A DNA stretch of 62,434 bases from a virus (IMGVR_UViG_3300032087_006201:1-62434), one strand, 5' to 3'; positions 1 to 47,193 are shown, numbered from the stretch's first letter. A program made the numbers and translations. Notes: generated from the letters alone by a model not told the origin.

Positions 1-956
1 ACTGTTGTGATGTACGCAACCGGCGGGTCTGTTACGCCTTCCTTCACTCTAATCTTACTAGCCGTGAGGTAGGTCGGGTTGGAAGAATAATTGAAGTCCT
101 TGTTGCTGGCACGGCAGAAATAAACGGTTGAGTTTAACTCTGTGGTGTTATTGAATGACAAGTCGTACATTCTGTGACGGACTGCATCTGCCATATTCTC
201 GATAGAGGCTCCCGTCAAGAAAGAGTTAAAGTCGTTAGAGGCGCTCATAGCCATACTTCCGGAAGAACCGTTGTCGTCACCGAAGGTCTGGAAGACTGAG
301 CCAGAAAGGACCGCGATTCCAGCTTGATAGAAGATCAAGCCAACCTTTGTATCGGCGGGCATAACTGAGCCTGTTCCGAGGAGAATTCCGTATTCACCGG
401 CAGGCGAATTTACCTTGAAAGAGTTGGCGGCGTCAGTGTCTTGGATTGTGATTAGGCTATTAAACTCTGTTACAGAAGAGCTTCCGAAAGAAGCACTAGC
501 GCCGAGTTGAAGCGTAAAGCTGCCCTTCTTGATTTCATCCTTTGTTAGAAGTCTAGCGAAATTGACAAAGACACACTCTTTTAGCTTTGTGCCCCCGGCA
601 GAAAGATCACCATCTTCATCGAACAATTGAACTGAGCCAGTGTAGTCAAAGCCCATAAGAACTTGGGCTACTTCGTTATAAAGGTTAATCTTCTTGTCTT
701 GTTGGGTTCTGGCAGTAGTGCCAGAGATACTAGAATCACTAGAATAGCCAGTTGTGAGGTCGAAGATGTGGTTCGCAGAAGAGCTTAGATATGGATAATC
801 ATAAACGCTTTGGAACATTCCGTGTGAATAGGTTTTGATGTTTTCGTCGTTGTATGTTCCAGAGACAATAGAGCCTGTGATTGGAATTGCCTCGTGTAGT
901 AGGGATCTGGTTGTTACAACATCATCTCTTCTGAGTGTCTTAAAAGTAGTAGCCAT
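1..956 (-). CDS. Putative virion structural (tail/baseplate-associated) protein, 3'-partial; missing from ORF track
   Basis: Manually translated open frame from ATG at 956 (MATTFKTLRRDDVV...YFCRASNKDFNYSSNPTY...PPVAYITTV) running off the window; AAGGA SD upstream; follows structural genes. Confidence 0.8.
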   Translation of the reverse strand, partial: MATTFKTLRRDDVVTTRSLLHEAIPITGSIVSGTYNDENIKTYSHGMFQSVYDYPYLSSSANHIFDLTTGYSSDSSISGTTARTQQDKKINLYNEVAQVLMGFDYTGSVQLFDEDGDLSAGGTKLKECVFVNFARLLTKDEIKKGSFTLQLGASASFGSSSVTEFNSLITIQDTDAANSFKVNSPAGEYGILLGTGSVMPADTKVGLIFYQAGIAVLSGSVFQTFGDDNGSSGSMAMSASNDFNSFLTGASIENMADAVRHRMYDLSFNNTTELNSTVYFCRASNKDFNYSSNPTYLTASKIRVKEGVTDPPVAYITT

Positions 957-968
957 TTTCTATCCTTC

Positions 969-1910: not shown

Positions 1911-1931
1911 ATTATTACCTCTTCGTAAATA

Positions 1932-1977
1932 TAATTAGTGATTTTTCAATCATTTTGCCCATTTTTATTTAAATAGT
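1932..1977 (-). promoter_or_regulatory. Two copies of putative phage late-promoter motif ACTAnTTA
   Basis: ACTAATTA at 1932-1939 and ACTATTTA at 1970-1977 (minus strand) in the intergenic gap; same motif recurs upstream of several other genes. Confidence 0.55.
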
Positions 1978-1996
1978 AATCTCACAAATTTATTCT

Positions 1997-5152: not shown

Positions 5153-5154
5153 AA

Positions 5155-8100: not shown

Positions 8101-8619
8101 GACAACTCTGTTTCCATTAGATGCTAATACAGGCTTTGAATTTACCTTAACTTCTTCATCAGCCTCCGGTTCCAAGGAAATAATTTGAACCTGATAGTCA
8201 ATTAAGTGGTTATATTGGTCTGGAACCTTAAAGTCTGGTCTATCAAATGCTCGTGTTTCTACCAAAAAGTCTGTTAATTCTTTGTTTGTGCTCTGAAAAA
8301 CCTTTAATACTAGATCTTTTCTTGAATTTTCACTCTTTACCCACGTTGTTTGATTCGTTTTTGTATCTTCTAGATCATTAATTAATACCTCAACTGTGGA
8401 TTTTAAAGAACGTTCAACTGTAAAAATATCATTTGTCAAGGAGCCGGCGTCATATTTCAAATCGCCATATCTATTTCTTGTTTCCTTGACCGGTCTTGTC
8501 TTGTCTATGGTGTTCTGACTTCTGGAATTAATTGCGCCGGCGGGAGCAATTGTAATCTTCCTTATGTAGGAGTTTGGGTTGGTTGAACTTCTAACACCTA
8601 GTTCATTTATTTTTGTCAT
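5155..8619 (-). CDS. Hypothetical protein (probable virion structural protein)
   Basis: 1154-aa ORF, TAATG-coupled to upstream gene; His-rich WTGPVHY..GWMQGAFH..PH motif; no confident family. Confidence 0.6.
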   Translation of the reverse strand: MTKINELGVRSSTNPNSYIRKITIAPAGAINSRSQNTIDKTRPVKETRNRYGDLKYDAGSLTNDIFTVERSLKSTVEVLINDLEDTKTNQTTWVKSENSRKDLVLKVFQSTNKELTDFLVETRAFDRPDFKVPDQYNHLIDYQVQIISLEPEADEEVKVNSKPVLASNGNRVVSIQKVVEFSIPREPEHLTYFAFTQQGEQVSRAILNSHSPIIIERVVESASLVDQSFIFTDSSGDVWTGPVHYQPNTGWMQGAFHVDIPHEALTRSQVTNSKIVDLRVLEEVSQLQIDIAPDPSAKIESNSYTTELYLTRDQAGNSLLTFGFDHFNYMVENSKYGRLFQVASRDLREYLLQNSKILNMSVVRREVRPSKGESRLQSSDIVLEDIQAPSQVIVSSREQNGTLNSITRYNIPGEDSNKYIEVPTDKEVSDRYQLFGRIEEIFVENTSNFRTFAVMDANIASITQGNYQYSIELQIQDIVGNFLAQKNDELKRAINVLENYLSIARKPENYNAKMGTYTQSFVEKMGSRSSTNTVLPWVSSIVKYIEVLEIITDIQPEQKTRLSRALYGLISPFVGTNDGIQTTLELMRALDIELGNLLSPNKERHFDASGAPKSAVSQGAASRLLTSTIDFSEVFDANILKGSGFDYFDQPPAPKGREPRLTNGILKITTDKYRERINKENQRYEGNLYDVDQISTEFPFISVEAAEALILDNTKFSYVAPTSVDLLENRIPLQAQNKDSLDYTTATSIIQNVINDPASKSFTVVSTAINSLINNLGGGVTQQRLADLNNIQEKNASFQDLGATSVGTNKGDTSTRIRRRARIRAQRDATTDSEEFLGRTNKFSRESSPRQADLTELEAREINLGGSAVLERLARRNTTTTNKQTTLSAPAPADISYDLTKNNNFISTRVIESNQGDKSVETLKNLPQQIKLLTLNKDRVYNDAAAKASSGDDANTDGFIYNFGMIRQVEYLSGYEGGYGNSPMWKLLDNSVLENLGTSILCRIRQYNDPKTNIGSFEFTNSLPVYNEYFIITTQRQAAPQKQPPQNFISTYEVESGFLTLDSRSIYSGFESELALEVTRHSLMDLQTGNNIEYFLTETPGAPTNSLTEVSGIGGKRARRDQTQQVTQAQITREPRRRRTQVRTRTRTTRGGNY

Positions 8620-9632
8620 TATTCACACTCCTCGCCAACCACATCTGTATTATAGATATTTACTCTCGCAACTGGTGACACATCTGGACAATCGTAAGGT
8701 ATGTCATCAACCTCTACTCCTCTTGTCCTCAGATCTTGAATTAAGGGACACATAACTTCTTCCGGAATTTCTAAATCTGTATTGACGTTGAAGAAGTATT
8801 CTGCATATGTCGCGTCTAGTCTGAAACTCTGTCTTCTTTGTCTTCTTCCTTCTGGCTCATCTATTAAGATATCATTAACCACCCTCTGTGTCTCGCGTTG
8901 AAAAGATAAGGGTGTTAGCTGAGATTCAGGACCTGCTGAGCCAGATTCAACAAGAAATACTTCTATTTCATAGTCGGTATCATTTGTGGCATTGTCCTCA
9001 TCAATGCTGAAAATTAGCTCTGGTCTGTCCTCTTTCAGATAAACGAAAGTGCCATTAGCATATTGGCGACTTATAATTCGATTAACAAAATCAGGATTTT
9101 CTAAATCAAACTCTTCAACATTCCCAACTGCTGCACGGTATGTTACCTCAAAATCTAATTGTGGTATCCTTAATACGTTGTTTTCTCTACCGGAAGTAGC
9201 CGAAGAGGTAAGGTAGTTTATAGCGCCGGTCAGCTCTCCTTTTAAAACTTGAACATTCCAAGATGGTGCCTCTTCGCTTCCAAGCTCCATAGTCCCAATA
9301 GGTTCTACAAAAACAAAATTTCTATCCTTAGAATTCTGAATTAATTCCCGAGGGGCGTCCTCTTGCCTGCTAGCAATTATTTCAGGAGCAAGATTAGATT
9401 CTACTCCGCTGAATAGATATTGAGCTTTTAGCTTGGGTGTGTTGGATTGAATTCTTGGTTCGATATCGTTTTGAGCCTCCAATACACCAGCGGAGCCGGA
9501 TGCATCATAAAGCACGTCTTCATCAAAAAAAGCATAATATGTTGGCTTGAACTTACCTTGTGAGAGAAGTGCCTCTCCGTATGGAGTCAGCTCAATATCG
9601 AGGACTTCCTCTTTATTGTCAAAAAATTTCAT
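8619..9632 (-). CDS. Putative baseplate/tail structural protein, N-terminal paralogue of 969..1910
   Basis: MKFFDNKEEVLDIELTPYGEALLSQGKFKPTYYAFFDEDVLYD aligns by eye with the N-terminus of 969..1910. Confidence 0.55.
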   Translation of the reverse strand: MKFFDNKEEVLDIELTPYGEALLSQGKFKPTYYAFFDEDVLYDASGSAGVLEAQNDIEPRIQSNTPKLKAQYLFSGVESNLAPEIIASRQEDAPRELIQNSKDRNFVFVEPIGTMELGSEEAPSWNVQVLKGELTGAINYLTSSATSGRENNVLRIPQLDFEVTYRAAVGNVEEFDLENPDFVNRIISRQYANGTFVYLKEDRPELIFSIDEDNATNDTDYEIEVFLVESGSAGPESQLTPLSFQRETQRVVNDILIDEPEGRRQRRQSFRLDATYAEYFFNVNTDLEIPEEVMCPLIQDLRTRGVEVDDIPYDCPDVSPVARVNIYNTDVVGEECE

Positions 9633-9643
9633 CCTTAAAGACT

Positions 9644-12600
9644 CTATTCACTAGTTTTTTCTATGTCGATTTCCGCTTCTACATTAACTAGTTCTACGAG
9701 AGAAAAGAAATCATATGGCCAGTTGTAGCTATATTTTGGATCGAATACCTTGGAAGAGTCTTCTCTGCCAACTTGCACGCCGAGAGATCGATCAAAATTG
9801 CCAACTTGTTGGTTGGAATCTTTGATGACCTTATCAAAGTAATTCTTTTGTGCCTTTTGCTTAACCTTGAAGACCATCCATTGAAGTTTGTCCTCCAAGT
9901 TACCAGCTAGTAATTCATTGTATAACAAATCATGGTCAATCTCAACTTCCTTGACAGCTTGCGCTGTTGGCGGATAATCACCCCTATCTGTATCAAAAGA
10001 GTACCCTATTTTTGGAGGTAAGTTCTGCCACATATCAGAAAGATCGTCTTGATCAAAGGTATGCTCGAATTCAAAAATATACATGCTAAAAGGAGTAACA
10101 TTTTCCGGATTTGCTAAGAAATCCATCTTTGGCGGCAAGACAAACTTCTGCATAGACCTGACCATACGAATTATTGACTCACCAGGGCAGTGCTCCTCTT
10201 CTGGTCCCATTACATCACCAAAATTTACAATCCTCAAAGCCTTGTCAATCCTCTGCCTTTCAAGGTCAAAGAACTTCTTCTGCCCATCCGCAACAATATA
10301 TGGTATCGCCACTACTGCTTCACAAACTGTCTTTCCAGTAGCAATTCGACCGAGCCTCTTTGGCTCTGTGCCGAAGCCTACTAGCTCAGTCAAAGAGCCA
10401 GTAGATCCGGGGTCTCCGCCCAAAGCTTTTGAGATATAATTTCTAGGAATATCTGCTATTTGCAAGAATATTCCTTGATCAGGCTGTTCTGGCAATACCC
10501 CATATTGGTGCCACATTCCGACACCTACACTAGCGCTACCAAATTGCGGGGCAGCAAACTCTGAACCACTGAAATTCAACATTGGCGTCTCAAACTTTGG
10601 CTGGATAACCCAAACATTTTGCTTAGTATCCGATGCCTCTATTGGCTTGCCGGTCGCAGGATCATATTTGAGATCCTTAATTTGTGCCTGACCGAACATA
10701 TTCAAGCAAGCATCAAGTTGCATAGCGTTATATTCGACGTTGGCAGAGTGGTACATCGTATTCTCTTTCATCACTGCCCACTCATTACCGACTCTACGCA
10801 AAGCAACTGATAGGTTGGCAGGTGAGAAGATCTCTTGCAGCGTTATCGGGTTCTCAGTTGTTGAGCTTCTTGGGGCAGTAAAGATTAGGTCTGCCCAGGA
10901 TTCTCCATTGTAATATGGTGGAGTGAATGGTAGATTTAAACCATCAGTCGATGTTTGAACTAGCTCTGCTTCACCACCACCGCAAGGAGGACCAAAAGCG
11001 GTTGGACGACTATACATCGTGAATGTTTCAAATACTTCTCCCTTTAAGTCTCTTGGAATCATTGGGTTTCTATAGCCCAATGCTCCTGTGCGATACGAGG
11101 GAACGTTCAAACTCTTAAATATCTTAATTCTCGCAGCATATTGCTCACCCTGCTTTACCGTTTCAAACTGACTCTCTGGTCTCGAAACTAGCGACGTGAA
11201 TTGTCTTTCGGGCAAGAAGAAGTCTGGCACCTCGGCAAAGAAGTTGCTAGCCATTAGCTTATACCTTGAATCACCAAGACCGCTCCAAGAAGCTGTTACG
11301 TTTAGTGAGCAGCTGGGGCTTGGCTCCATATCAGCCATATCTTTATCGGCAATGTAGTTTTCTGGCTCGATCATAGCCTCGAACGGAATCCTGTAATGGA
11401 ACCTACCAATTCCGCCAGATCCAGAGATAAGCGGGGTAGCGCCAGTTGAGGCTTTGTAAGTATCATCGTGCAACTCAACACTTGCTGAGAACATAGGATA
11501 ATCGACGGCTAGACCAGACTTTATCGAGTTATACATAATACCAGGTCCAAAGAACGGAGTCATAAAGGTCCTGAAACCAACATTATCTGGTAGGGCGCCA
11601 GAAGTAGAAGTTGAAGAATCACTTCCGGTCAAAACAACATTGGCGCCATATGAAGAGGAGAACTGCAAGCCCATCTGGGTGGTCCTCTCGGATGGGTAGA
11701 AACCGTCATATGGAATGAACTTCAATAGTGCTTTGCATCGTAGAGCAATGCTTGTTGGGTCGCCAACATTTTCGTGGTCTTTTCTTACCACCTCGAAGAA
11801 CTTTAAGAAATCACTGTTCGTGTATGTCTTATAGAACAGCTCCTCGTCACTCTTATCTCGATCGCCGGTGCCGCCGGTGACCTCTAAGAACACATCGTTG
11901 TCAGCTAAGAAGTTTCCACCTAGATCCTTGACATATCTATCTATGTGCTCGCTAATCCTAAATGATGGAACAATTGAATAGTCTTTACCAACTAGGCGCA
12001 TTTGGCTGACATAATCTTCATAGTTATTATACCAAGGAGTCTTACCTGCTTGTTCGCCGGCTTGCCACAGAGAGGCGCCCCCATATATCTGGTCAGTAGC
12101 GCCAATGCTCCTGAATGTGTCATTCAGAGAAGCTAGCGAAGTGCCATCTACATATGATGAGGAGTACCCACCAATTGTCAGAAGTGAATTTGGTCTATCA
12201 AGAGTGTGGATTCTACTATATTGAACAGAAGCTGTGATATTAGCCTTTGTTCCACTGTGGAACTGGTTATAACGAGCCAAGAGGACACCGGGACCAGCGC
12301 TGCCAGTACCAGTATTCGCTGTAATCCTAGCTGTCAAGAAGTCCTCCTCTGCATCGAGTGACCACATACTCTGTGAAGTGATGAGGACATTATCTGGCAA
12401 ATCGAATCCCTTAACCTTGGTAAGGTCAGTCTGAGTCCTATCAGAGCGCAAGTTTCGCCAGAAGTTGTTGGCATAATTTTGTCTTACTCGAACGCTGCTA
12501 GAATAAGCATTTATAACAGCTGGATATACCGACTCTCTGTAAGTTAAGGAAACAAACTCTTCTACCGGGCTGTCTGGATCTGCCGCAGCACCATCCAAGT

Positions 12601-18373: not shown

Positions 18374-18375
18374 TT

Positions 18376-21806: not shown

Positions 21807-21831
21807 TATAATTTTACCAATTTTATCAATA

Positions 21832-21839
21832 TAAATAGT
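21832..21839 (-). promoter_or_regulatory. Putative late-promoter motif ACTATTTA
   Basis: Recurrent intergenic motif, 25 nt upstream of the gp6-like start. Confidence 0.5.
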
Positions 21840-21846
21840 TATTTAA

Positions 21847-29411: not shown

Positions 29412-29420
29412 AACAATACC

Positions 29421-30383: not shown

Positions 30384-30385
30384 AA

Positions 30386-31576: not shown

Positions 31577-31577
31577 A

Positions 31578-33345: not shown

Positions 33346-33355
33346 ATTTAACTCC

Positions 33356-37037: not shown

Positions 37038-37062
37038 TTTCTCAACCCTTTCTTATGGTTCC

Positions 37063-38013
37063 TTACCATATAAAATTCTTCTTATAATACTCTACAATTG
37101 TAGGGATCTCGTCATCAAAAACTCTCTTTGGACTCCATCCGATATTGCGAAGCTTGCTGTCGTCAAGAGCATATCTCACATCCTGCCCAACGCGAGAATA
37201 TGAAAAATCCAAATATCTCTCAACTCTATCAATATCTCCGTAGTAGTTTCTAATAACCTTCTTCACTGTTTCGATATTTTGCTGTTCAAAACCGCCGGCA
37301 ACATTATAGATCTCATTTATAGTCCCTGACTGGATAATTGCCATAACTGCTTCCGCAGTATCATCAGCGTGAAGCCAGTTTCTATATGGGGTTCCATTAT
37401 TATGGAGCCTAATCTTCTTACCTCTCATAAGATTCTTAACAGAGAGAGGAATCAATTTTTCTGGATATTGTCCGATTCCATAGTTGTTTGTGGGTCGAAG
37501 AATATTGTAATTAAGCCCATAAGTTCTCGCCCAAGCAAGGATCAGCATATCGCCTGCGGCTTTTGAGGCAGAGTATGGATTACTTGGTTTGAGTAGATCC
37601 TCTTCCGTGTGAGCGCCATCCGTAATATCGCCATACACTTCGTCGGTGCTAATATGTAACATAATTGGACGACTATTGCAATTCTCTTGCTTACCTCTGA
37701 TTAACTCTAAGAGATTCTTTACCCCAAGGATGTTTGTGTTGATAAATTCATCACTGCTTACGATACTATTACCGACGTGCGACTCTGCGGCATAATTGAT
37801 CACATAATCACAATCATAAAGATGTTTCAGATCCTTTATATCAACAGCTTCAAACTTAAAGTTTTCATATTTCTCAAACTGTTTCAAAAGACCTGGATTC
37901 GCAGCATAGGTAAGCTTATCAATGCCATATACCATCCAGCCCCGATCTAGGCACTTCTTGGTAGCGTATGCTCCCATAAAACCCAGACATCCAGTAATAT
38001 AAACTATCTTCAC
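37063..38013 (-). CDS. rfbB: dTDP-glucose 4,6-dehydratase-like SDR
   Basis: ITGCLGFMG, IDKLTYAAN, AAESHV, HISTDEVYG, NPYSASKA, NNYGIGQYPEKLIP. Confidence 0.88.
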   Translation of the reverse strand: MKIVYITGCLGFMGAYATKKCLDRGWMVYGIDKLTYAANPGLLKQFEKYENFKFEAVDIKDLKHLYDCDYVINYAAESHVGNSIVSSDEFINTNILGVKNLLELIRGKQENCNSRPIMLHISTDEVYGDITDGAHTEEDLLKPSNPYSASKAAGDMLILAWARTYGLNYNILRPTNNYGIGQYPEKLIPLSVKNLMRGKKIRLHNNGTPYRNWLHADDTAEAVMAIIQSGTINEIYNVAGGFEQQNIETVKKVIRNYYGDIDRVERYLDFSYSRVGQDVRYALDDSKLRNIGWSPKRVFDDEIPTIVEYYKKNFIW

Positions 38014-39341
38014 TTTAAGTCCTCAAAAAATTTATCAACAGTTTGCTGAATATAGTCAAGCTTCTCGTCAGTTAGACCAATAAAGGTCCCGAGGAAGAAT
38101 GAGTTTGTTGTTACCAGCTGGGCAACCGGAAAGGTTTCGTTCATATCTCCGTACTCCGCTGCCATATGATGATACCCGGGGTGTGCAAGGATATTTCCAG
38201 AGAAGTATGATCGTGTCTGGATTTTATGTTGTTCTAGCCAGGAAACCATATCTTGTCGCCCAAACGGTGCGCCTTCCTTGACAGTCATCAAAAATGCAAA
38301 CCAGCAGGGATCAGCCTTCTCAGTTGCCTTTGGAAGATGAAGGTATTCGGCATAAGGCTCAAAGATCTCCATTAGGCGATCAAAGTTCTTTCGTCGAGCA
38401 GCATCAAACTCAGGTAGTTTATCCAGCTGTTGAAGACCCATTGCTGCCTGCATATCTAGTGGTTTAAGATTATAGCCAATCTCCTCAAAGACGTAGCGAT
38501 GGTCATAGACGGCTTCTCGCAGCCCTGGGAGCCAATCACGGAACCTGTTACCACAAGCGGTCCCTTCAAGCACAGAACCCGGCTTAGAGGTGTTACAATA
38601 GCAAGCACGACCCCAATCACGAATACTGGCGACCACTGTTCTAATCTTATTGTCATTCGTCGCCACAAAGCCGCCCTCGCCCATCGTCATATGATGGGCT
38701 GGAAAGAAGGAACAAGTTGAGATATGCCCAAACGAACCAAGCTTCTTTCCGTCGTATGTTGAGCCCAGGGCGTCGCAAGAGTCCTCAACAAAGATAAGAT
38801 CATACTTCTCGACAAGACCCATTAGACGATCCATATCAGGCGGGTTTCCTAGAACGTGTGCAAACACAATGCCCTTGATCTCAGGATCATCCTCCAACAC
38901 TCTCTCTACTTGATCTAGGTCTAAGTTGAGGTCGGGAAGAGTTACATCAACGAAGACTGGCTGAAAACCGTTTTGAATAATGGGGTTGATAGTAGTCGGG
39001 AAGCAGACGACTGGGGTAATGATCTTTGAACCCTGTTCAAGGTTAAAGAGTCGCTTTGATTTTAGAGCAGAAATTGCAAGCAGGTTGGCTGAGCTACCTG
39101 AATTAGTCAGCGAACCGTACTTCATTCCCAGGTGCTCTGGGAACCTCTTTTCGAATTGTCGAGCATTCTTTCCGAAGATAAGCCACCCGGAAAGCAGCTG
39201 TCTCATGGCTGCAATATATTCGTCTTCATCAAAAACTGGTCCAGAATAGGCGACCCAATCTTCACCTGGTGTCCATTCCTTCTTTGTCTCTGCTAAGTGC
39301 TTTCTGATTAACTCTTCAATCTGTCCCAAAGTTTCAGACAT
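38010..39341 (-). CDS. rfbH: NDP-4-keto-6-deoxyglucose 3-dehydratase (E1, RfbH/DdhC type)
   Basis: NSGSSANL, EDSCDALGS, SFFPAHHMTMGEGG (His in place of the PLP Lys), Cys cluster DWGRACYC...TACGNRF, YDHRY. Confidence 0.9.
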   Translation of the reverse strand: MSETLGQIEELIRKHLAETKKEWTPGEDWVAYSGPVFDEDEYIAAMRQLLSGWLIFGKNARQFEKRFPEHLGMKYGSLTNSGSSANLLAISALKSKRLFNLEQGSKIITPVVCFPTTINPIIQNGFQPVFVDVTLPDLNLDLDQVERVLEDDPEIKGIVFAHVLGNPPDMDRLMGLVEKYDLIFVEDSCDALGSTYDGKKLGSFGHISTCSFFPAHHMTMGEGGFVATNDNKIRTVVASIRDWGRACYCNTSKPGSVLEGTACGNRFRDWLPGLREAVYDHRYVFEEIGYNLKPLDMQAAMGLQQLDKLPEFDAARRKNFDRLMEIFEPYAEYLHLPKATEKADPCWFAFLMTVKEGAPFGRQDMVSWLEQHKIQTRSYFSGNILAHPGYHHMAAEYGDMNETFPVAQLVTTNSFFLGTFIGLTDEKLDYIQQTVDKFFEDLK

Positions 39342-40159
39342 CTATGAATTCCTTCCTCGATTCCTAAAAGATTTAAATGTAGATTCTCAAGCCTTGTGGC
39401 ATCACCCGTATAGGGACTTCCCATGCTTGGATTATCTATCATAACATTATTTTTACTTTTTGTGAAATCTTTAACCATCATAGCAACGTCATAAAGTGTT
39501 GTTTTTTGACTATAACAAAGATTAATGTCTCTAGGTAGCCCTTCGCTGGAATCTAGATACAAACCCAAAACACGACAGAGGTCGCCAACAAAGATGTAGT
39601 CCATCTCTTTATTTTGGTGGATATGGGCATCGTGCCCTGTTGTCAATTTGGTATGGCAACTTTTTATGAGCCTTTGGGGTTCTTCGAGGGCTCCAAAGCA
39701 CCCAAATAACCGAAAATTAACTATATTTTCGTAATTATCAAAAATATTTCTAGCAATTAGGTTCTTCACTAAGCCATAATAGTCTTGTGGAAGTCTGTTG
39801 AATATCTGCTCCTCTGAAATGCAATCTACTGTATCGGCACGATCAAATTCAGCACCAGAGCCAAAGTTGATCATAAGCTCGAACTCATCAGAATGAGCTG
39901 CCAAGTTTTGAAACATCGCGGCATTCTGAAAAAATGCCGACACATCGTCTTTATCTAATCGCTTTCCACCGTTGATCGCAGTATGGATTACACAATCCAC
40001 ACTATTCTCCGAAAAAAAATTATCTACCTGTTGGCGATCTGATACATCTAATGTACTTCTATTTGTAGAGATAATCTCAAATTTATCACTCTTTTGAAAT
40101 TCAGAATAGATTTCTCTGGCAATAAATCCGTTACCGCCGGTGAGCAACACCTTTTTCAC
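39308..40159 (-). CDS. NAD-dependent epimerase/dehydratase/reductase (extended SDR)
   Basis: LLTGGNGFIA, NFGSGAEFD, YGLVK (YxxxK). Confidence 0.85.
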   Translation of the reverse strand: MKKVLLTGGNGFIAREIYSEFQKSDKFEIISTNRSTLDVSDRQQVDNFFSENSVDCVIHTAINGGKRLDKDDVSAFFQNAAMFQNLAAHSDEFELMINFGSGAEFDRADTVDCISEEQIFNRLPQDYYGLVKNLIARNIFDNYENIVNFRLFGCFGALEEPQRLIKSCHTKLTTGHDAHIHQNKEMDYIFVGDLCRVLGLYLDSSEGLPRDINLCYSQKTTLYDVAMMVKDFTKSKNNVMIDNPSMGSPYTGDATRLENLHLNLLGIEEGIHRCLKLWDRLKS

Positions 40160-40635
40160 TATCGCACCAGATTCAAATATGATGGTCTATTGTTTTCCAC
40201 AAGAGTGTCCAATATTGCCCTAAGTTCTTCCTCTTGTTCTGGGTGATATACATCGATGTTGTCGAAGCAGCTCATAACTCTTTTATCATCCTCAGCCCAG
40301 TGTGTAAATCCAAGCTTTCCGTAGTCCTTGCCTCTGCCGCCACCGATTAGTTTAACTGGAACCTGTTCGTGGTCCAGGTAATTTCTGATGAACTCAAAGG
40401 GTCGATACAAAAGAAAGGGCGTTATAGAATAAACGAATGGAATCTTTCCCTCCATAGCCATGCCGCTAGCGGCTCCGAGCATTAATTGTTCAGAAGACCC
40501 AACATTATAAAAGCGCCTTGGAAAATCTAGGCGAACCTTATCCCAGAGACCATACCCTAGGTCGCCAGTCAAAACAACAACCCTAGGATCGACACTCATC
40601 TTCTCGTGCAATAATTGGCTAAATGCTCTCCTCAT
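40159..40635 (-). CDS. Transketolase-like subunit, pyrimidine-binding domain only
   Basis: LTGDLG, FYNVGSSEQLMLGAASGMA, PFVYSITPFL..RPFEFIR, GFTH; lacks the C-terminal domain. Confidence 0.88.
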   Translation of the reverse strand: MRRAFSQLLHEKMSVDPRVVVLTGDLGYGLWDKVRLDFPRRFYNVGSSEQLMLGAASGMAMEGKIPFVYSITPFLLYRPFEFIRNYLDHEQVPVKLIGGGRGKDYGKLGFTHWAEDDKRVMSCFDNIDVYHPEQEEELRAILDTLVENNRPSYLNLVR

Positions 40636-41270
40636 TTTGCAGCCTCCAACATGGATACAGCCTGTTCATAATCATGCTCTCTCATAATATGATAATGGGC
40701 GTTTAGCCCCCTTAGGAACGGAAAGTGATTAACATCACTATAAAGAATATTAATTTCCGGCAAGAAAGCGCGGAGGCGCCTTTCCAAATATTGCTCATCG
40801 ACAGCGTCGTATGCCGCATATCCATTCAGATTGGCGTAGATTTTAATGTTTTCCACTCGGTTTTCGTGGATGAATTTCAAGGATTCCCACACAACCCCCT
40901 CTGCGCACTCTCCATCACTGACGAGGCAATGAACAGTTATATCAGGTCGAGCCAGTGCTCGACCAACAGCAACTGAAATACCCATGCCCAAGCTGCCGGT
41001 AGAACAGTATATTTTATCGTTGTCATCTTTGTGGGGATGTCCGCCGTGCTTGTTGAATAAGTATTCTGCATCAATACCATGATATTTTTCTAGAACAGCG
41101 TAAAGAGCCAGAGCAGCATGACCGCAAGATAGAATGAAGATATCATCTTGCCCCATATTCGAGAAAATATTATCGACAATATCCAAGCAAGAAAAATAAC
41201 TCCCCAAGTGTGATAAGTTATTCTTGTAGGCGATATCCAAGACTCTTCGTTTCAGTTTTAAATCTTCCAC
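40632..41270 (-). CDS. Transketolase-like subunit, N-terminal ThDP-binding domain
   Basis: SHLGS, FILSCGHAA, GGHP, STGSLGMG, SDGECAEG..WE...NLNG; probable GTG start at 41270 after GGGGAG (track start 41282). Confidence 0.88.
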   Translation of the reverse strand: MEDLKLKRRVLDIAYKNNLSHLGSYFSCLDIVDNIFSNMGQDDIFILSCGHAALALYAVLEKYHGIDAEYLFNKHGGHPHKDDNDKIYCSTGSLGMGISVAVGRALARPDITVHCLVSDGECAEGVVWESLKFIHENRVENIKIYANLNGYAAYDAVDEQYLERRLRAFLPEINILYSDVNHFPFLRGLNAHYHIMREHDYEQAVSMLEAAK

Positions 41271-41992
41271 TTTTCTCCCCAATGCTCCTGAATTAGGATA
41301 TCATAATTTGTCTGCTCTTTTTGAACCTTCCAAGTTGCTTGGTCTTCATGCCAGCGATAGTAAAAGCCAAGCCAAGCTGGTGCTGGATAGATGAAGATAC
41401 CATTATCTGCTAGCCGACAATAGAGGTCATAATCAGCGGCGCCCCCATACTTTTCGGGCTTCGTCTTCAACAAGCCATCTCGATAAAGAGAAGTGTTGTA
41501 CATGACAGTCGGGGTATTTACTGGGCACCTCTCTAAGCATTGGTTTTTAAATTCTTTGAGACTCTTATACGAATGTCCGACATTATTAACAGTCCTACCT
41601 GTATTGGAATGTATGCCGGCGATTGGGCTTTGTAGCGCTAATATGTCATCTGGCTTCGCCATAAAGATTCTCATGTTATTTGCAATAAAATCTTTATGTA
41701 GAAAATCGTCAGAACCCATTACTAGAACATAATCTCCCGTCATTAATTCAAACCCACGAGAGCGAGGCTCATCCCAACAATGTGGATAGATATTTTTTGC
41801 AGATGACATAATGAGGTTTGGAAATTCTTCCCTTACCTTTTCTGCTATTGCCACACTGCCATCTGTGCTCTCATTATCAACAAAGATAACTTCGACATCA
41901 CTATACGTCTGAGATAGGGCTGTGACAAGTGCTTGTTCGATCCACTTCTCACTATTATAACAAGGGATTATGATTGAAACCTTAGGGTTCAT
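41258..41992 (-). CDS. Glycosyltransferase family 2 (GT-A)
   Basis: VSIIIPCYN, FVDNESTDGS, GSDD, ADYDLY. Confidence 0.92.
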   Translation of the reverse strand: MNPKVSIIIPCYNSEKWIEQALVTALSQTYSDVEVIFVDNESTDGSVAIAEKVREEFPNLIMSSAKNIYPHCWDEPRSRGFELMTGDYVLVMGSDDFLHKDFIANNMRIFMAKPDDILALQSPIAGIHSNTGRTVNNVGHSYKSLKEFKNQCLERCPVNTPTVMYNTSLYRDGLLKTKPEKYGGAADYDLYCRLADNGIFIYPAPAWLGFYYRWHEDQATWKVQKEQTNYDILIQEHWGEKWKI

Positions 41993-42896
41993 TATTTAAA
42001 CTCAACAACTTCTTCGCTCTTTGGATATATGTGTGATTGGAGAGTATATTATTGCGATTTTTCATCTTCTCTTGTAAGAGGAGATCATCTGGCATATCGC
42101 AAACTTGCCTTACCATATCAACCATCTCTTTCGGACTTCGTGCCATCTGAATATCTGGAAATAGATTTGGCAAGCAATCAACTTTATCTGATACGATTAT
42201 ACCACAGAGACCAAGGGATTTAAACGTTCGCTCATTTGTGTCGAGACCCAGGGCATGCTGATAGGCGTCGTGTATGTTTATCGCCACTCTGCTATTGGAT
42301 ATCAGTTTGTTCTCTTGTTCGTGGGAGATCCCCCTATTAACGGCAAACCCACATCGTAAGCCCGACTCTTTAAAAGCTGATAGGTGATCTAATATGATCT
42401 TTTGCTTTTCATTAAAGCCGTTATTAGCCCATCCTCCAACATAACACACATCAAAAGAATATTTATCTGAACTTAAATCTTGATAGTTGATTGAATCAAA
42501 AGCCAATGGAACATAATTTACTTGATTCCAGCCGGAATAGAATTGACTTCCCTCTGTTTCAGCAAATGACCATTTGAATATACCTATCGATTGATTGAGT
42601 GGTGTCAATAAATTTGCCGAGACTTGGGAAACAAAATTAGGGTGGGCGCCCCAGGGAGATGGAAACCTATTTGGTTGAACATACAGGTATGCTCGCTTCG
42701 CTCTTCTTAGAGCCTCCACATGTTCTTCGCTTCTTACATCATAGTCAATAGCCATGAGATCATAATCTGTGTCTTGAATTTCTAACAAATCCTTATATAG
42801 TTTGACCTCAAAACCAAGATGCCGCCAAGCTGATTCGTATCCTTTATAGATCCACTTGCCAGCCCCAAAGGGGTGCTCTTTAATGTAAATTCTCAT
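41982..42896 (-). CDS. CgeB/Glyco_trans_1_2-like glycosyltransferase
   Basis: DVCYVGG, SRVAINIH, NERTFKSLGLCG, HTYIQRA. Confidence 0.78.
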   Translation of the reverse strand: MRIYIKEHPFGAGKWIYKGYESAWRHLGFEVKLYKDLLEIQDTDYDLMAIDYDVRSEEHVEALRRAKRAYLYVQPNRFPSPWGAHPNFVSQVSANLLTPLNQSIGIFKWSFAETEGSQFYSGWNQVNYVPLAFDSINYQDLSSDKYSFDVCYVGGWANNGFNEKQKIILDHLSAFKESGLRCGFAVNRGISHEQENKLISNSRVAINIHDAYQHALGLDTNERTFKSLGLCGIIVSDKVDCLPNLFPDIQMARSPKEMVDMVRQVCDMPDDLLLQEKMKNRNNILSNHTYIQRAKKLLSLNNEP

Positions 42897-43816
42897 TTAA
42901 AAATCTTCTCTAATGTTTTTGCCAATCTCACCTCAGATGTGTGCTCTTTGATGTATCGTTCGTGCCCTCTTTCGGCAATCTTCTCGGCAATTGTGACATT
43001 TTTTAATAAAAACTTTATCTTTTCGTTCATTTCTGCGCCGGTTTTAAAGCAGATAATCTCCTTGTCCAAAGTAAAATATTCTTCAATTCCAGGGGTGTAT
43101 TCTGTCACCAGTAGAGAACGTGCCGCCGGAACCTCAAACATTCTACCTTTCATTTGTGGCTGCCCATTTGCCGCATTTTTACTGAAATTGATCCCTATTA
43201 ATGATGAAGCATAGGTGTATGCCAAATCTTCAAAACTTACATTTTTAGGATGAATTATTGGCACGTCAGCGGACCTAAGGGCAGCCAAGAATGCTGCCCG
43301 ATCACCCGCTGGATTTCCCACAAATGCAACCCTTGGGTGCTTAGGGGCGGGTATGGCGCTATAAAAGTCTTCGCATGCATGCCACGTTGCTTCAACAATA
43401 TTAGAATACCCTATCTCTTCATACTTGTTTAGAAACCTTTTTTCCGGTGTTGAACAGACATGAAATAGTTTGCAAACTTTGCTTGAAAAGGATTCAAAGC
43501 GCCACGAATCATCACAAAACCAATTGAAGGTTCTTAGTCTCCCCTTCTCAGTTTCTCTTGCTATTGTTTCCCACGGCTCGCGAGGGCAGTACCCAGCATC
43601 CCCAGTCATCATACAGAATAGCAGATCTGGCTTCTTGGCTTCTACTAGATTGGCTAGTTCTTTATCGCCAGCTATTGAAGTATCGACAAAAGTCACCTCA
43701 TGACCAAGGGCTTTTAATGGAAAATAAAAATTCCAAAATGAATAATCAAATCTAAAATCTTTATCAGTGCCCATGTGTTTTGAAATGCTCTTTGGGGCAA
43801 CTAAGAAAATCTTCAC
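42893..43816 (-). CDS. CgeB/Glyco_trans_1_2-like glycosyltransferase
   Basis: WFCDD, VAFVG, SLIGINFS, MKGRMFEVPA, GHERYIKEHT..R. Confidence 0.85.
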   Translation of the reverse strand: MKIFLVAPKSISKHMGTDKDFRFDYSFWNFYFPLKALGHEVTFVDTSIAGDKELANLVEAKKPDLLFCMMTGDAGYCPREPWETIARETEKGRLRTFNWFCDDSWRFESFSSKVCKLFHVCSTPEKRFLNKYEEIGYSNIVEATWHACEDFYSAIPAPKHPRVAFVGNPAGDRAAFLAALRSADVPIIHPKNVSFEDLAYTYASSLIGINFSKNAANGQPQMKGRMFEVPAARSLLVTEYTPGIEEYFTLDKEIICFKTGAEMNEKIKFLLKNVTIAEKIAERGHERYIKEHTSEVRLAKTLEKIFK

Positions 43817-44658
43817 TATATTCCCAACTCTTTCTTGATAATCAAGGGTATCTCTTCTCGTTTTTCTTGCATGACTGCAATCAGGTCATCACCTCGAAGG
43901 CTAAACCAGGTCTCTTTTGAAGCCCCAACCAAACCATTGGTAACCACCTTCATATCCATCATTCGCGCCTCGACCACTATCCTAGAAAGCGTTTCAGGGG
44001 TTTTTGGCAGAAATATTAAAGATTGGTTTGACCCTAGACGCCTTAAAAATTCTTCATATGGCAGACTTGGAATCAGTTCATACGGGATTCTCTTAATACT
44101 GCAATACCTGATGGCATCTAACGTATTCTTATGTGGAATACTTGATTCCATTATTGAATACTTATCTGCTTTTTCCACCTTACTCATTTCGGATAATAGA
44201 GAAAGCTGCTGCTTTGACCACAGATTTCCACCAAGGCTCACAATATTATCAATACCTAAGTTCTTATGAACTATATCCTTATGAAAAATTGACTGACACA
44301 ATACTGCTGTGGCATTTTGATAAAATTTCTCATTTACCAACTCTTCGGGAGGAGCCACAAAATTAGGGTAAGTTGCTGGATTTCTAGATTTTAGGTACTT
44401 ATGATCGTGCTCGTAAATAATATATTTTCTTGATTGAAGTGTGCTCTTCACTTCCTCAGAGAGATTTATGAAGTTTGCTACAATAAATACACTATCCCTA
44501 GATGCCTCGATTACGCTCCTTGTCACTAAGTGACTTTGCAACTTATGAACAGTATAGCCTTGCGACAAAAGAATTTGTATAAGCTCTTCATTGTTGATTT
44601 CTCCGCCTCCAAGTATTTGCTCTACGAAGAAATCAGCTATGAATACTATGTCACTCAT
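43816..44658 (-). CDS. Putative GT-B glycosyltransferase-like protein
   Basis: GGGE near N-terminus, YEHDH, P..PETLSRIVVEARMM resembles the GT4 E-x7-E motif; likely ATG at 44658. Confidence 0.6.
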   Translation of the reverse strand: MSDIVFIADFFVEQILGGGEINNEELIQILLSQGYTVHKLQSHLVTRSVIEASRDSVFIVANFINLSEEVKSTLQSRKYIIYEHDHKYLKSRNPATYPNFVAPPEELVNEKFYQNATAVLCQSIFHKDIVHKNLGIDNIVSLGGNLWSKQQLSLLSEMSKVEKADKYSIMESSIPHKNTLDAIRYCSIKRIPYELIPSLPYEEFLRRLGSNQSLIFLPKTPETLSRIVVEARMMDMKVVTNGLVGASKETWFSLRGDDLIAVMQEKREEIPLIIKKELGI

Positions 44659-45922
44659 GACTCTCAATGTCTAGGTTAGACAGCCAATTATCAACGTCGA
44701 ACTCTTCTTCTTCATAGACAGCATTGCAGAAATCAGCATACTTCTGTTCAGGGGTAAAGTTCTCCTCCAAGTGGGCTCTCAGGGTATTGGCAAGACCTCT
44801 AAACCGATTAACGTCTTTATAGACTTCTCTGAGTCTATTTTTATAACTGCTCTCTTTTGCATAGCACCACTCAGAGTCAGCCTGGATGACACCTTCCCAC
44901 ACACATTCTTGCGCGACTTGATTCAACTCAAAATCCACCGTTGCAAAGCACGGCTGGATCTTTGTTTCTGCCTTTTTGTTCTTCTTTTTGACCTTCCTGG
45001 GTGCTTGAAGGAAATCTACGTGCCCGCTCCAATTAGGGGCAATGATTGGCAAACCATTGTACGCTGCCTCGAAGAGTGGAAGCCCAAAGCCTTCGCCGTG
45101 TGTTAAAGAAACCAGACATTTAACTCTTGAATCTGTATATAGACCTGTCATCTCCTCGGCACTCATATACCCATGAAGCAAATAAACTTTGCACTTTCGA
45201 TCTGGATATTCTTGTAAGAGATTTTTTAATTTAGAATTTGTAACCTCTCTATCAACCAAGGAATTCTTGAAAAGATTAGTCTTGACAATTAAGCCGACTT
45301 CATCATCCTTAAACTCCTCTACCCACCAACGAATCGTGTTTTCTAGATTCTTTCTAGGACCCCACTGCGAGATTGTCAAAAAATTGAAATCATAATCTAG
45401 ATTCAAATCTAGGTTAGCTGCCTTGTAGGTCCTTACAGGATAATGTACAACTTCGATTGGAGTTGTGCTTTGAAGCCTTACGGTCTTATCTTGTCCTGGG
45501 ATCTGAACATCGTAGATGGTATCGGCAAATGTATCGCGAGAGTGATTTGAAATAGTAATAATCTTATCTACAATATTGCTTTGCTGGATCCATTGTGGGG
45601 CAATCTTTGTTGTCTCAATCCCGGCAGTGTAGCCAATATTAACAGGAGCGATCTTCTGCCATTCATTAGGGATGGTAACTTGCAATGAAATGTCATACGT
45701 ACCCTTATGGTGTTCGTGAAAAGCCGTCTTTCTCACAAGGGCGTCAATCCACCCACGCTCTGAATCGGTGGGCATTAACCAACTACTGTTTCCCCAGTTG
45801 GTGGGCTTAACATAGACATCAAATCGCTCGGGATGAGACATCAAGCTTCTTAGAGCAAACCTGCATTGCTCTCCATATCCAGTTTGTGATAAGGCTGGTC
45901 CTACTACTAAAATCTTCTTCAC
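44651..45922 (-). CDS. Glycosyltransferase family 4 (GT-B)
   Basis: TGYG, PRKN, HGEGFGLPLFEAA..GLPIIAPNWSG. Confidence 0.9.
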   Translation of the reverse strand: MKKILVVGPALSQTGYGEQCRFALRSLMSHPERFDVYVKPTNWGNSSWLMPTDSERGWIDALVRKTAFHEHHKGTYDISLQVTIPNEWQKIAPVNIGYTAGIETTKIAPQWIQQSNIVDKIITISNHSRDTFADTIYDVQIPGQDKTVRLQSTTPIEVVHYPVRTYKAANLDLNLDYDFNFLTISQWGPRKNLENTIRWWVEEFKDDEVGLIVKTNLFKNSLVDREVTNSKLKNLLQEYPDRKCKVYLLHGYMSAEEMTGLYTDSRVKCLVSLTHGEGFGLPLFEAAYNGLPIIAPNWSGHVDFLQAPRKVKKKNKKAETKIQPCFATVDFELNQVAQECVWEGVIQADSEWCYAKESSYKNRLREVYKDVNRFRGLANTLRAHLEENFTPEQKYADFCNAVYEEEEFDVDNWLSNLDIESHE

Positions 45923-47193
45923 GCTACCTCCTCAAAGCTCCAACTTTGATAACCTTTTCTATTTTTCCAAGATCCAAATTCCTCAATAACCTCAGTAAGC
46001 AATTGATCCCATCTTTCTGCAAACTGCTCTGCGCTGTAATTGCTCAGAACGTGATCTCGACCTTGGGATCCCATTTGTTCCCTTTCCTCGCGAGTTAAGT
46101 TATGAAACTCAACAAGAGCATTAATGAAATCTTCCTTGCCCACTCGATCCTCATAGATGTACGGAACGTCCTGAGAACCTATGACTCCCTTAGAAGTTGG
46201 TTCAATTCCGATGCCGAACCAGTTCTCTCCATCAGTTACTTGTTCTTGCAGACCACCAGTCATATTCACTATGATTGGCGTTTCGCACGCTAAGGATTCA
46301 AAGGTCGCAAGACCAAAGCCCTCGGCATCAGAAATGTTGATAGTGCAGTCTGCTGCTGAATATAGCATCGCCAGATGACCGGGAGCCATCTTTTGTGTTG
46401 AGAGCATAACCTGACCATCAGTCAAGCCAAGCCTTTCAAGAATGTGAATCAAGTCTTGACCGTGAGCATCCTTGGGGTCTGTGTGCATAACGAGTCGAGC
46501 ATTGTCGTGCCCAACCTTATCAAGGAATTCCTTAAACCACCAAATAATAGTTCCCGGCATCTTTCGGCGCGCGTTCCTATTGTTCCAAAAGAAAAGTGTA
46601 AAGTCATCGTTTTTGTCTTCCGGAATCTTAAAAGATTCTTGTCGAAAGGAAGAGTTTGCTGCATCTGTCTGCTTCTTGAAGATATCTGTATTCACCATAT
46701 GTGGGATATACATCTCCTTTACGCTCGGCGCAACTGTTTGGACAATATCACTCGTTACTTTTGAGATTGTGGCAACGTAGTCCGTTGATTCGTACCATCT
46801 TCTATTGAATTGTGGGTATGGGTAGTTGTCCCAAACGTGATAATAGACCATAGGAACAGCGTCTCTTACCTCATTTTCGATTTCCCAGAGCCAACCATAA
46901 AAACGAGGATCAGTCATAAACCACAACACATCTGGCTTGTGGCTGACTAGCAAATTACGAATTAGGTCTTGACTTCCGTAGCCATCAATTGGGAAAATAA
47001 CCCAGTCATCCCCATAGGGATCGACCTTGATTGGTTGATAATTTTGGTGCTTTATTGCCCCACCCATACAAATAAAGCGATACTTGCCGGTTGCAAGCAT
47101 CGCTTCGATGAAGTATTTTGTTTGTGTTCCAACCCCGGATGGTGATAAGGGGTGATCTGATAAAATTAAAATCGTCTTTTTGTCTTGTGACAT
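45919..47193 (-). CDS. Glycosyltransferase family 4 (GT-B)
   Basis: SDHP..PSGVG, NRNARRK, AEGFGLATFESLACETPII. Confidence 0.9.
   Translation of the reverse strand: MSQDKKTILILSDHPLSPSGVGTQTKYFIEAMLATGKYRFICMGGAIKHQNYQPIKVDPYGDDWVIFPIDGYGSQDLIRNLLVSHKPDVLWFMTDPRFYGWLWEIENEVRDAVPMVYYHVWDNYPYPQFNRRWYESTDYVATISKVTSDIVQTVAPSVKEMYIPHMVNTDIFKKQTDAANSSFRQESFKIPEDKNDDFTLFFWNNRNARRKMPGTIIWWFKEFLDKVGHDNARLVMHTDPKDAHGQDLIHILERLGLTDGQVMLSTQKMAPGHLAMLYSAADCTINISDAEGFGLATFESLACETPIIVNMTGGLQEQVTDGENWFGIGIEPTSKGVIGSQDVPYIYEDRVGKEDFINALVEFHNLTREEREQMGSQGRDHVLSNYSAEQFAERWDQLLTEVIEEFGSWKNRKGYQSWSFEEVA

Follow-up and report, generated by a model that had tools for sequence, protein, structure and literature searches.

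The window discussed here is a stretch of viral DNA of 62,434 nucleotides (IMGVR_UViG_3300032087_006201:1-62434), which encodes part of a phage tail and, just upstream of the baseplate module, a cluster of nucleotide-sugar and glycosyltransferase (GT) genes. A subset of the predicted tail proteins is rich in the tripeptide [S/T]-[G/A/S]-S, hereafter called the motif, and the original prediction made for this DNA proposed that it is an O-glycosylation sequon marking exposed virion proteins.

All substantial open reading frames (ORFs) of the window are on the minus strand, as are all the features given below with their coordinates. The high-coordinate end is occupied by a block of eight tRNA genes with a DUF2827 protein, an HNH endonuclease, a ClpP-like protease, and a SpoU methylase, followed in the direction of transcription by an Ala-rich coiled-coil protein, a PhoH/PIN protein, an ATLF/M90-like metallopeptidase, and a PD-(D/E)XK nuclease. 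Then come 14 sugar and GT genes (47193..33356), an M23 peptidase, a protein of 2377 amino acids (aa; 22278..29411) located upstream of the wedge genes, and the gp25-like and gp6-like baseplate wedge proteins themselves (127 and 602 aa, respectively; 19998..22230), which match phrog_261/phrog_43 and phrog_219/phrog_6. These two wedge genes anchor the module, which is why it is read as a baseplate. The low-coordinate end contains a 540-aa protein, a giant 2909-aa protein with a Laminin_G_3 domain, and five more ORFs without a detected family.

Among cultured phages, the nearest relatives are Flavobacterium phage vB_FspM_immuto (Immutovirus, 160 kb; immuto in what follows) and Microcystis phage Mel-JY01 (190 kb), and both the gp6-like protein and the first GT of the cluster, a member of family GT4, are about 30% identical to their counterparts in the two phages. 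For immuto, the identity is 31.5% over 99% of the length for the gp6-like protein and 31.5% over 97% for the GT4, and the window shares with this phage the gene order PD-(D/E)XK nuclease, GT4 pair, sugar genes, gp25-like, gp6-like, and post-wedge protein. As far as the sequence tells, these similarities place the window in an Immutovirus-like marine myophage of about 160-190 kb, with kinship at the level of the group and not membership of the genus at such divergence. The related metagenomic records with a CheckV completeness of at least 90% span only 159-203 kb, so the label of jumbo phage, which had been attached to this virus at first, was dropped.

The tripeptide motif of the distal tail proteins

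The motif was counted in all 46 ORFs of the window and compared with 500 within-protein shuffles. It is over-represented 3-12-fold in five proteins, with z from 4.2 to 10.3, and the five pooled contain 79 motifs against 18.3 expected (z 15.1). These proteins are the giant distal tail or fiber protein of 2909 aa (9644..18373; 45 motifs against 11.2, z 10.3), whose Laminin_G_3 domain (PF13385) covers residues 182-353; the 540-aa protein encoded directly downstream of the gp6-like gene (18376..19998; 16 against 3.5, z 6.9); the 318 codons of an ORF that is open past the window start (3..956; 10 against 2.3, z 5.1); a 337-aa protein (8619..9632; 3 against 0.4, z 4.2); and a 162-aa protein encoded two genes downstream of the Ala-rich coiled-coil, fiber-like gene (50594..51082; 5 against 0.4, z 7.7). 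No Pfam or PHROG family was found for the last three. The remaining 41 ORFs are at chance level, each with z ≤2.2: the motif occurs once in the gp6-like, the 1154-aa, and the 1051-aa proteins, three times in the 2377-aa protein (5.1 expected; no Pfam family), not at all in the gp25-like protein, and 0 or 1 time in each of the 14 sugar and GT ORFs.

The original prediction had relied on counts made by eye (about 15, about 10, dozens, and 4 in the 540-aa, 318-codon, giant, and 162-aa proteins, respectively), which proved right to within one when the script returned 16, 10, 45, and 5, and the enrichment that it expected over shuffled controls was found. It had also correctly noted that the motif is nearly absent from the gp6-like, 2377-aa, and 1154-aa proteins and from the enzymes, and that it marks a subset of the virion proteins. 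By the counts, the enriched proteins are all encoded downstream of the gp6-like wedge, apart from one small protein.

Control patterns were counted in the same five proteins, pooled. Three of them are flat, namely [ST][GAS]T (19 against 14.5 expected), [GA][GAS]S (14 against 14.6), and [ST][GAS]N (9 against 11.7), while [ST][non-GAS]S is depleted (37 against 55.7). Because [ST][GAS]T is not enriched, serine appears to be required at position 3, and the depletion of the motif with any other middle residue indicates that a small residue is required at position 2. The N-glycosylation sequon N-x-[ST] is not enriched (43 against 46.9), and D-[ST]-[AILVMT], the general O-glycosylation sequon of Bacteroidota, is depleted (9 against 17.7). 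When the tripeptides of the five proteins were ranked, SGS came first, TGS second, SSS third, and TAS sixth (z 10.1, 7.2, 5.3, and 3.8), a scan in which only the size of the excess is informative, as the set had been picked by the motif.

The sites use all six Ser codons and every Thr, Gly, and Ala codon, and this synonymous spread indicates that the signal lies at the protein level and is not a DNA motif, as had been proposed from the varied codons. They are isolated, fall in nonrepetitive sequence, and are dispersed along the distal tail proteins. Residues -1 and -2 are hydrophobic at 53% and 48% of the sites, respectively, against a background of 31%, and position +3 prefers A, V, Y, or F.

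The conservation of the motif was followed in the family of the 540-aa protein, for which at least 534 relatives were confirmed in the viral contig collection and 933 were found at E ≤0.001 among 1.84 billion cluster representatives. Each of 69 distinct homologues (49-80% identity) carries 8-18 motifs, with z of 3.3-9.1, and among the 150 listed representatives of the family 132 have z >3; together, these 150 contain 1899 motifs against 554.5 expected, with the control [ST][GAS]T at 527 against 477. In terms of position, the motif is present in 70 of 70 sequences at query residues 286 and 483, in 64 at residue 326, in 62 at residue 464 (with A in the middle in 35 and G in 34), in 60 at residue 27, in 56 at each of residues 77 and 398, and in 50 at residue 222, while many other columns have it in only 11-43. 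The middle residue drifts among G, A, and S across the homologues. As many columns are weakly shared and the total per protein is nonetheless high, sites turn over while their number stays high, suggesting from the alignments that the number of sites may be maintained as well as their position.

The AlphaFold2 model of the 540-aa protein, built from 48 sequences (pLDDT 71.7, pTM 0.70), is almost wholly β. Its residues 1-273 align with a carbohydrate-binding jelly roll, that of the chondroitin-sulfate carbohydrate-binding module 8wab_B (Z 9.9, root-mean-square deviation 3.3, 148 residues), and residues 412-540 align with sandwiches of the immunoglobulin (Ig), fibronectin type III (FN3), and macroglobulin (MG) types (Z 7-8.7), a range of common folds. 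The modeled protein would therefore resemble a carbohydrate-binding jelly roll in its N-terminal part and an Ig/FN3-like sandwich in its C-terminal part. A Foldseek search of the model against the PDB returned only generic Ig, FN3, and MG sandwiches (TM score 0.12-0.18), and a search of BFVD only uncharacterized phage proteins. When the 16 sites were mapped by hand on this model, 14 started at the beginning or end of a strand or in coil, and two lay inside strands.

A minority of the family members are poor in the motif (P0136, none in 486 aa; P0089, 1; P0122, 3; P0119, 4; P0130, 3 in 608 aa), and these have charged or polar residues in the columns where it is otherwise conserved. Residue 326 becomes SDE, EDD, ADT, or TDS, residue 464 KAY, DAY, or KMY, residue 286 KSN or VSN, and residue 398 SEE or TET. 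As D, E, or K can occupy the former sites, the fold does not need the motif, and columns that tolerate charge are what is expected of surface positions, which argues, at the level of the predicted protein, for sites that are exposed. A separate observation concerns the N-terminal block R-G-T-G-S-N-M-G at residues 24-32, which includes site 27: it is kept even in several motif-poor homologues and falls in a low-confidence stretch of the model, so that this site may have a role of its own.

The loss of the motif is a trait of the genome and not of one protein, as exemplified by locus L081, which encodes P0136 exactly: here the giant LamG homologue also has only 2 sites in 3331 aa (counted by eye) against 45 in 2909 aa in the window. 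The lineage of this locus (genome G001, with loci L081 and L157) is further distinguished by markedly acidic tail proteins and by a protein of 1182 aa against 396 aa at the position of the M23 peptidase, and the acidic shift in composition may reflect a different habitat or host. When further independent motif-poor lineages were sought, the record of L161, the relative of P0089 (1 site, likewise motif-poor), was found to end 3.4 kb upstream, and those of the close relatives of P0130 end 6-8.5 kb upstream; P0122 has no relatives in the viral collection and P0119 none closer than 44%.

The major capsid proteins of a motif-rich and of a motif-poor genome are alike, with 4 motifs in 635 aa and 3 in 584 aa. 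The original idea of a general glycosylation of the virion is not supported by this lack of enrichment; on the evidence of the predicted proteins, the motif is a property of the distal tail and not of the whole particle.

The glycosyltransferase pair and the sugar cassette

Pfam assigns 13 of the 14 co-oriented ORFs at 33356..47193 to sugar or GT families, the exception being a 283-aa ORF without a Pfam match. The single sugar operon of the original prediction is thus real and lies upstream of the baseplate module, but it is composed of two parts, a core GT4 pair and a hypervariable cassette of 12 genes. The pair (44651..47193; 424 and 423 aa, Glycos_transf_1 by Pfam) is at the head of the operon and belongs to the core genes throughout the phage group. 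The cassette begins with the gene for the 283-aa protein (43816..44667), and the remaining eleven genes, identified by Pfam, occupy 33356..43816. The GTs are clustered, with the GT4 pair, the 283-aa protein, a GT2, and two Glyco_trans_1_2 proteins all found at 41258..47193.

The 283-aa protein belongs to a virus-restricted family that is often fused to a GT2 domain. Its atlas clusters are 88-100% viral, its structural neighbors of 542-546 aa carry PF00535, and in three records the family occurs in a frame of 536-538 aa that also matches GT2; on these grounds the protein looks GT-like.

Read from the low-coordinate end, the cassette encodes a GDP-mannose 4,6-dehydratase (TIGR01472 gmd, 446 bits with a cutoff of 415), epimerase/reductases, a B12-radical SAM enzyme, an RfbH/ColD-type 3-dehydrase (NF011936 RfbH, 474 bits with a cutoff of 423), a split transketolase, the GT2, and the two Glyco_trans_1_2 proteins. 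In this arrangement, the 3-dehydrase sits beside the transketolase, which is divided into two small ORFs (38010..41282), and the GDP-mannose dehydratase and the B12-radical SAM enzyme lie downstream of this block in the same operon. The predicted content of the cassette points to a 3,6-dideoxyhexose as its product, possibly one that is branched or C-methylated; such a synthesis would be unusual for a phage.

In the related phages, the variable stretch is the one between the GT4 pair and a module made of a 254-aa protein, the M23 peptidase, a 320-aa protein, a protein of about 2300 aa, and the wedge genes. The complete genome G004 (L159, 40500-58500) has at this place GT2, GT10-like, sulfotransferase-like, DegT, FdtA-like, and epimerase genes, and G012 (L158, 134000-153999) has NeuB, a cytidylyltransferase, sugar methyltransferases, a glutamine-synthetase-like protein, and a SAM lyase. 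The content differs between genomes yet is always sugar chemistry, and the locus in G012 and G004 is a hotspot for cassette exchange.

The GT4 pair (two proteins of about 390-470 aa with Glycos_transf_1) is instead conserved: it turned up in 30 of the 32 related records, among them all eight without a cassette. Of the two exceptions, the record of G010 begins just upstream and that of G032 extends over only 11 kb upstream. The second GT4 is contained, in four records, in a frame of 656-686 aa, which also matches GT2 in both records tested. Compared with the window's proteins, the orthologues from the cassette-less records show 54-58% identity for the first GT4 and 42-51% for the second, and both proteins keep there their glutamate-containing blocks of the E-x7-E, catalytic type. 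Homologues are present in immuto, in Mel-JY01, and, more distantly, in Rhodothermus phage RM378. The best solved match of the first GT4 is the chlorovirus glycosyltransferase B736L (E 1.2e-7), while the matches to GtfA are weak (E 0.05 for chain 5e9t, 0.14 for 4pqg), and a Pfam search did not find DUF1975 in either GT4. A pair of the GtfA/GtfB type with one inactive partner was considered and is not supported, given the lack of a DUF1975 match, the weak GtfA match, and the catalytic look of both proteins.

The relation between motif load and cassette was examined by means of the interval between the GT4 pair and the homologue of the 540-aa protein, derived by hand from the coordinates of the related records. 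In 22 records it measures 17-38 kb, and the window, with 24.6 kb, falls in that range, against 11.4-15.4 kb in eight records (G001, G002, G006-G009, G028, and G031), which are the cassette-less ones; the ORF maps of three of these show that the GT4 pair directly abuts the tail module. The 540-aa homologues of the eight contain 0 motifs in G001 (L081; by script) and, by eye, 4 in G002 (L082), 0 in G006 (L116), 1 in G007 (L122), 1 in G008 (L115), 2 in G009 (L105), 7 in 490 aa in G028 (L224), and 5 in 491 aa in G031 (L162). The six cassette-bearing genomes counted by script have 16 in the window and 12-13 in L004, L019, L079, L045, and L044. Seventeen of 18 other relatives, which bear a cassette or, as G010, are truncated, were classed as motif-rich by alignment columns only, with six holding 6-7 of the 8 key columns, and G017 (L048) was left unscored, having been dropped as a duplicate of L045 (G016).

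Family searches gave a similar division. The epimerase/dehydratase family (PF01370) was detected in none of the eight cassette-less records and in 13 of the 15 cassette-bearing records tested, and GT2 (PF00535) in one of the eight, about 64 kb from the tail module, against 11 of the 15. The 283-aa family was found in 0 of 6 motif-poor versus 7 of 12 motif-rich records. Motif load therefore follows the cassette, imperfectly: the tie to phage sugar genes that had been proposed is seen in the counts (0-7 against 12-16), and it is blurred by two cassette-less records that keep a moderate load. The GT4 clade, whose co-variation with the motif the original prediction had put forward as a check, is not what varies with it, since the pair is conserved, with intact blocks, in motif-poor genomes.

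Two other gene products were considered and discarded. The Glyco_trans_1_2 proteins (300 aa) are poor candidates for co-varying enzymes, with similar short frames in 3 of 18 records plus a frame of 581 aa in a fourth, and the DUF2827 protein (57543..58631) is a poor candidate for the sequon enzyme, as it occurs in 3 of 31 related records, all three motif-poor. The DUF2827 match itself is full length (262 bits), and its three carriers form one motif-poor lineage, suggesting horizontal movement of this gene within the phage group.

The cultured relatives carry both elements. In immuto, whose host is Flavobacterium sp. LMO8, the PD-(D/E)XK nuclease is followed by two GTs, a GT2, aminotransferases, a methyltransferase, a mannosyltransferase, an epimerase, and a further GT, and the three tail proteins read contain 7 sites in 369 aa, 10 in 1265 aa, and 4 in 568 aa (raw counts by eye), mostly preceded by a hydrophobic residue. 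In Mel-JY01, the nuclease is followed by a GuaB gene, a glycosyltransferase in two pieces, a 455-aa hypothetical protein, which is taken as the second GT4 by position only, two GT-A-type proteins, and a methyltransferase; its tail proteins have 6 sites in 386 aa and 18 in 1336 aa (again raw counts by eye). No direct homologue of the 540-aa protein was found in cultured phages by tblastn at E 1e-5, and the post-wedge proteins of immuto and Mel-JY01 were matched by synteny and shared N- and C-terminal features only. As the motif and the GT cluster occur together in phages whose hosts belong to two phyla, the recognizing factor is arguably borne by the phage and not by the host.

Other genes of the window have features of their own. 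The Ala-rich protein of 664 aa (51625..53619) contains 24.8% alanine and degenerate repeats with periods of 54 and 75 nucleotides; its gene lies within a local maximum of GC content (52.6%, as compared with about 43% elsewhere), and, judging from its composition, the product looks like a long coiled-coil fiber or whisker protein. At 54875..57542, the eight tRNA genes are interleaved with a 157-aa ORF, the ClpP-like protease (55887..56525), and the HNH endonuclease (56771..57289). The 248-aa protein at 48277..49023 has weak Pfam matches to zinc metallopeptidases (ATLF domain, E 4.4e-8, and Peptidase_M90), and its gene keeps its place beside PhoH in the relatives.

Proposed sequon-directed glycosylation and the competing explanations

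What is observed is a motif that is specific, conserved, restricted to certain proteins, and associated with the cassette. The explanation first proposed for it, that [S/T]-[G/A/S]-S is a sequon for phage-encoded, cytoplasmic O-glycosylation of the phage's own distal tail proteins, is still the best reading, with in our judgment about equal prospects of being right or wrong: it accounts for a real, specific motif that is selected in the protein and tracks the cassette, and it is weakened where it involved the GT4 pair, which does not co-vary. More tentatively still, a wider picture can be drawn, in which this abundant group of marine and freshwater myophages would run its own sequon-directed, cytoplasmic O-glycosylation, the three-residue acceptor would be decorated at its dozens of sites in the outermost tail proteins, a swappable cassette at a fixed locus would set the glycan and so create host-recognition "serotypes", and the sequons would erode after loss of the cassette; we would hesitate to call this picture probable.

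The attachment of a sugar, the residue that is modified, and the enzyme that initiates the process are the parts that we infer. Late in infection, the cassette would turn a host nucleotide sugar into an unusual activated sugar, and in the window the likely route would lead from GDP-mannose to a GDP-3,6-dideoxyhexose, possibly branched or methylated. The GTs of the cluster would then attach the glycan to Ser or Thr of exposed sequons and extend it, before or during tail assembly. The acceptor would be the motif, usually placed after one or two hydrophobic residues at the edge of a β-strand or in a loop, and the targets would be the post-gp6 protein, the giant LamG fiber protein, and a few other proteins. 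Exchange of the cassette between lineages would give each its own glycan, whereas after its loss selection on the sequons would lapse, with decay often toward charged residues that keep the surface soluble. Since motif load does not go along with the presence of the core GT4 pair, the favored initiator is a cassette enzyme such as the 283-aa/GT2 family, which was detected in only 7 of 12 motif-rich records.

Several facts weigh against this reading. The GT4 pair, at the head of the operon, persists where motif and cassette are both gone, and its conservation in those genomes implies a job that is independent of the motif. Among the cassette-less records, G028 keeps, besides the 7 sites of its 540-aa homologue, 23 in a fiber protein of 3332 aa, and G031 keeps its 5; these two records are only 27-33% complete, so that a cassette elsewhere in the genome, or a recent loss, is possible. 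Conversely, G012 is complete and motif-rich and has neither the epimerase nor the GT2, but a NeuB-type cassette. Many of the counts in relatives were done by eye, with a possible error of one or two. Moreover, by the sequence features that they have in common, the motif-poor lineages look related, so that the association may rest on one or two evolutionary events, and the numbers of records given for it are not corrected for kinship. Finally, the sugar cassettes of marine phages are usually explained as tools for remodeling the host surface. Phage GTs are also known to glycosylate DNA, according to the passages of PMC12619734 that deal with them.

The main rival builds on some of these points. 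In this explanation, the motif is a structural or folding feature of β-rich tail proteins, placed at strand ends or subunit interfaces, the cassette acts on the surface of the infected cell or on another target, and the two are associated by shared ancestry. The location of most sites at strand boundaries, the two columns that are invariant in 70 of 70 sequences, and the persistence of site 27 in several motif-poor homologues all speak for it, and it is compatible with motif-poor lineages that may form one or two clades, with the moderate load of the cassette-less G028, and with a GT4 pair that survives without the motif. However, the same tripeptide is enriched in proteins that have no detected family in common, and only in some of the tail proteins; the fold survives D, E, or K at the sites; loss of the motif jointly affects the 540-aa and the giant protein; the count stays high although many sites turn over; and the strict preference for Ser over Thr at position 3 is hard to explain by backbone geometry. 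We consider a purely structural origin unlikely, if clearly worth keeping in mind.

A second alternative retains glycosylation of the tail at the motif and assigns the first step to the GT4 pair, which would start the glycan from a common host nucleotide sugar that the cassette then elaborates, the motif-poor lineages having few or different sites. We regard it as rather improbable. The pair is universal and adjoins the tail module in all lineages, and its first member has a chlorovirus glycosyltransferase as best solved match; G028 and G031, which have only the pair, are also the cassette-less records with 5-7 sites and, in the fiber protein of the former, 23. The layout, moreover, parallels that of the serine-rich-repeat adhesin loci, where a conserved priming pair is accompanied by variable extending GTs, as described in the relevant part of PMC6973325. 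Against this stand the five cassette-less records with intact GT4 pairs and only 0-2 sites, the catalytic-type blocks kept by both GT4s, which leave no inactive partner like GtfB, and the lack of a DUF1975 match together with the GtfA similarity at no better than E 0.05.

It is very improbable that the motif is recognized by something other than a phage GT (a host enzyme, a phosphorylating or acylating activity, or a sensor of host defense, the motif then being kept for a reason unrelated to sugars), since nothing speaks directly for it beyond the ClpP-like protease and the ATLF/M90-like metallopeptidase encoded in the window, whereas a single host enzyme is unlikely for phages of both Bacteroidota and Cyanobacteria, the Bacteroidota sequon is depleted, no kinase or acyltransferase family appeared among the 45 window ORFs scanned against Pfam, and the association with the cassette would be left unexplained.

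If the motif is a working sequon, as the glycosylation reading holds, glycosylated phage proteins would become predictable from sequence, and the widespread "auxiliary" sugar cassettes of marine phages would gain an explanation. The glycan would add a new layer of variation to the host-recognition machinery, with effects on host range, on recognition by defense systems, and on sticking to marine gels. Glyco-engineering could also profit from short, portable O-glycosylation sequons that come with matching cytoplasmic enzymes. The idea can be tested in culture, as two cultured relatives, both growing on non-pathogenic hosts, carry the motif and the gene cluster.

Comparison with known glycosylation systems

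Within the library of full texts searched, supplements excluded, there was no report of an acceptor motif, that is, an O-glycosylation sequon, for a phage tail or virion. To our knowledge, self-glycosylation of phage particles has been documented mainly in mycobacteriophages, and we know of no acceptor motif there.

Among viruses, the giant ones offer a close parallel. The glycans of the chlorovirus capsid and of the Megavirinae fibrils are made by virus-encoded, clade-specific sugar clusters, and those of the chloroviruses are N-linked at atypical sites. The phage group discussed here is similar in having its own nucleotide-sugar pathways and GTs, in clusters that differ between clades, and, as proposed, external fibers as targets, and the match of the first GT4 with B736L is in line with this similarity. 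The giant viruses differ in that they infect eukaryotes, and we know of no shared short O-sequon described for them.

A bacterial analogy is given by the autotransporter heptosyltransferases (TibC/AAH), which modify serines in short loops between β-strands by using ADP-heptose. The process proposed for the phage would similarly involve a cytoplasmic GT acting on many Ser residues of a β-rich surface protein, at strand-loop-strand sites. The enzyme family and the sugar are different, and the TibC/AAH family was not detected in the scans of the window.

Glycosylation of the virion by phage-encoded enzymes is known in mycobacteriophages (PMC12619734, citing Freeman et al. 2023, Cell Host Microbe; also cited in PMC12582341), with glycans that, in the sections of PMC12619734 devoted to them, are placed at the C termini of the capsid and tail-tube subunits. 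As far as those sections describe it, the mycobacteriophage type agrees with the present case in that phage GT genes lie next to structural genes, and the modification of the phage's own structural proteins in the host cytoplasm, established there, is proposed here. They differ in that here the motif, known from sequence alone, is dispersed through distal tail proteins while the capsid is not enriched, and in that a whole nucleotide-sugar pathway is encoded, which varies between lineages.

The serine-rich-repeat adhesins, as presented in PMC6973325, are O-glycosylated on Ser and Thr in the cytoplasm by a conserved adjacent pair of GTs, GtfA/GtfB, while variable further GTs diversify the glycan, and their acceptors are built on alternating serines. 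With respect to this account, the candidate phage acceptors are different, as they are isolated tripeptides in folded, nonrepetitive proteins and not long repeats, and so is the GT4 pair, which has no match to DUF1975, the domain through which the two proteins of the GtfA/GtfB priming complex interact, looks catalytic in both members, and persists where the motif is gone. The organization of the locus is nevertheless parallel, with a GT pair conserved in 30 of 32 records and a variable content of GT and sugar genes downstream of it.

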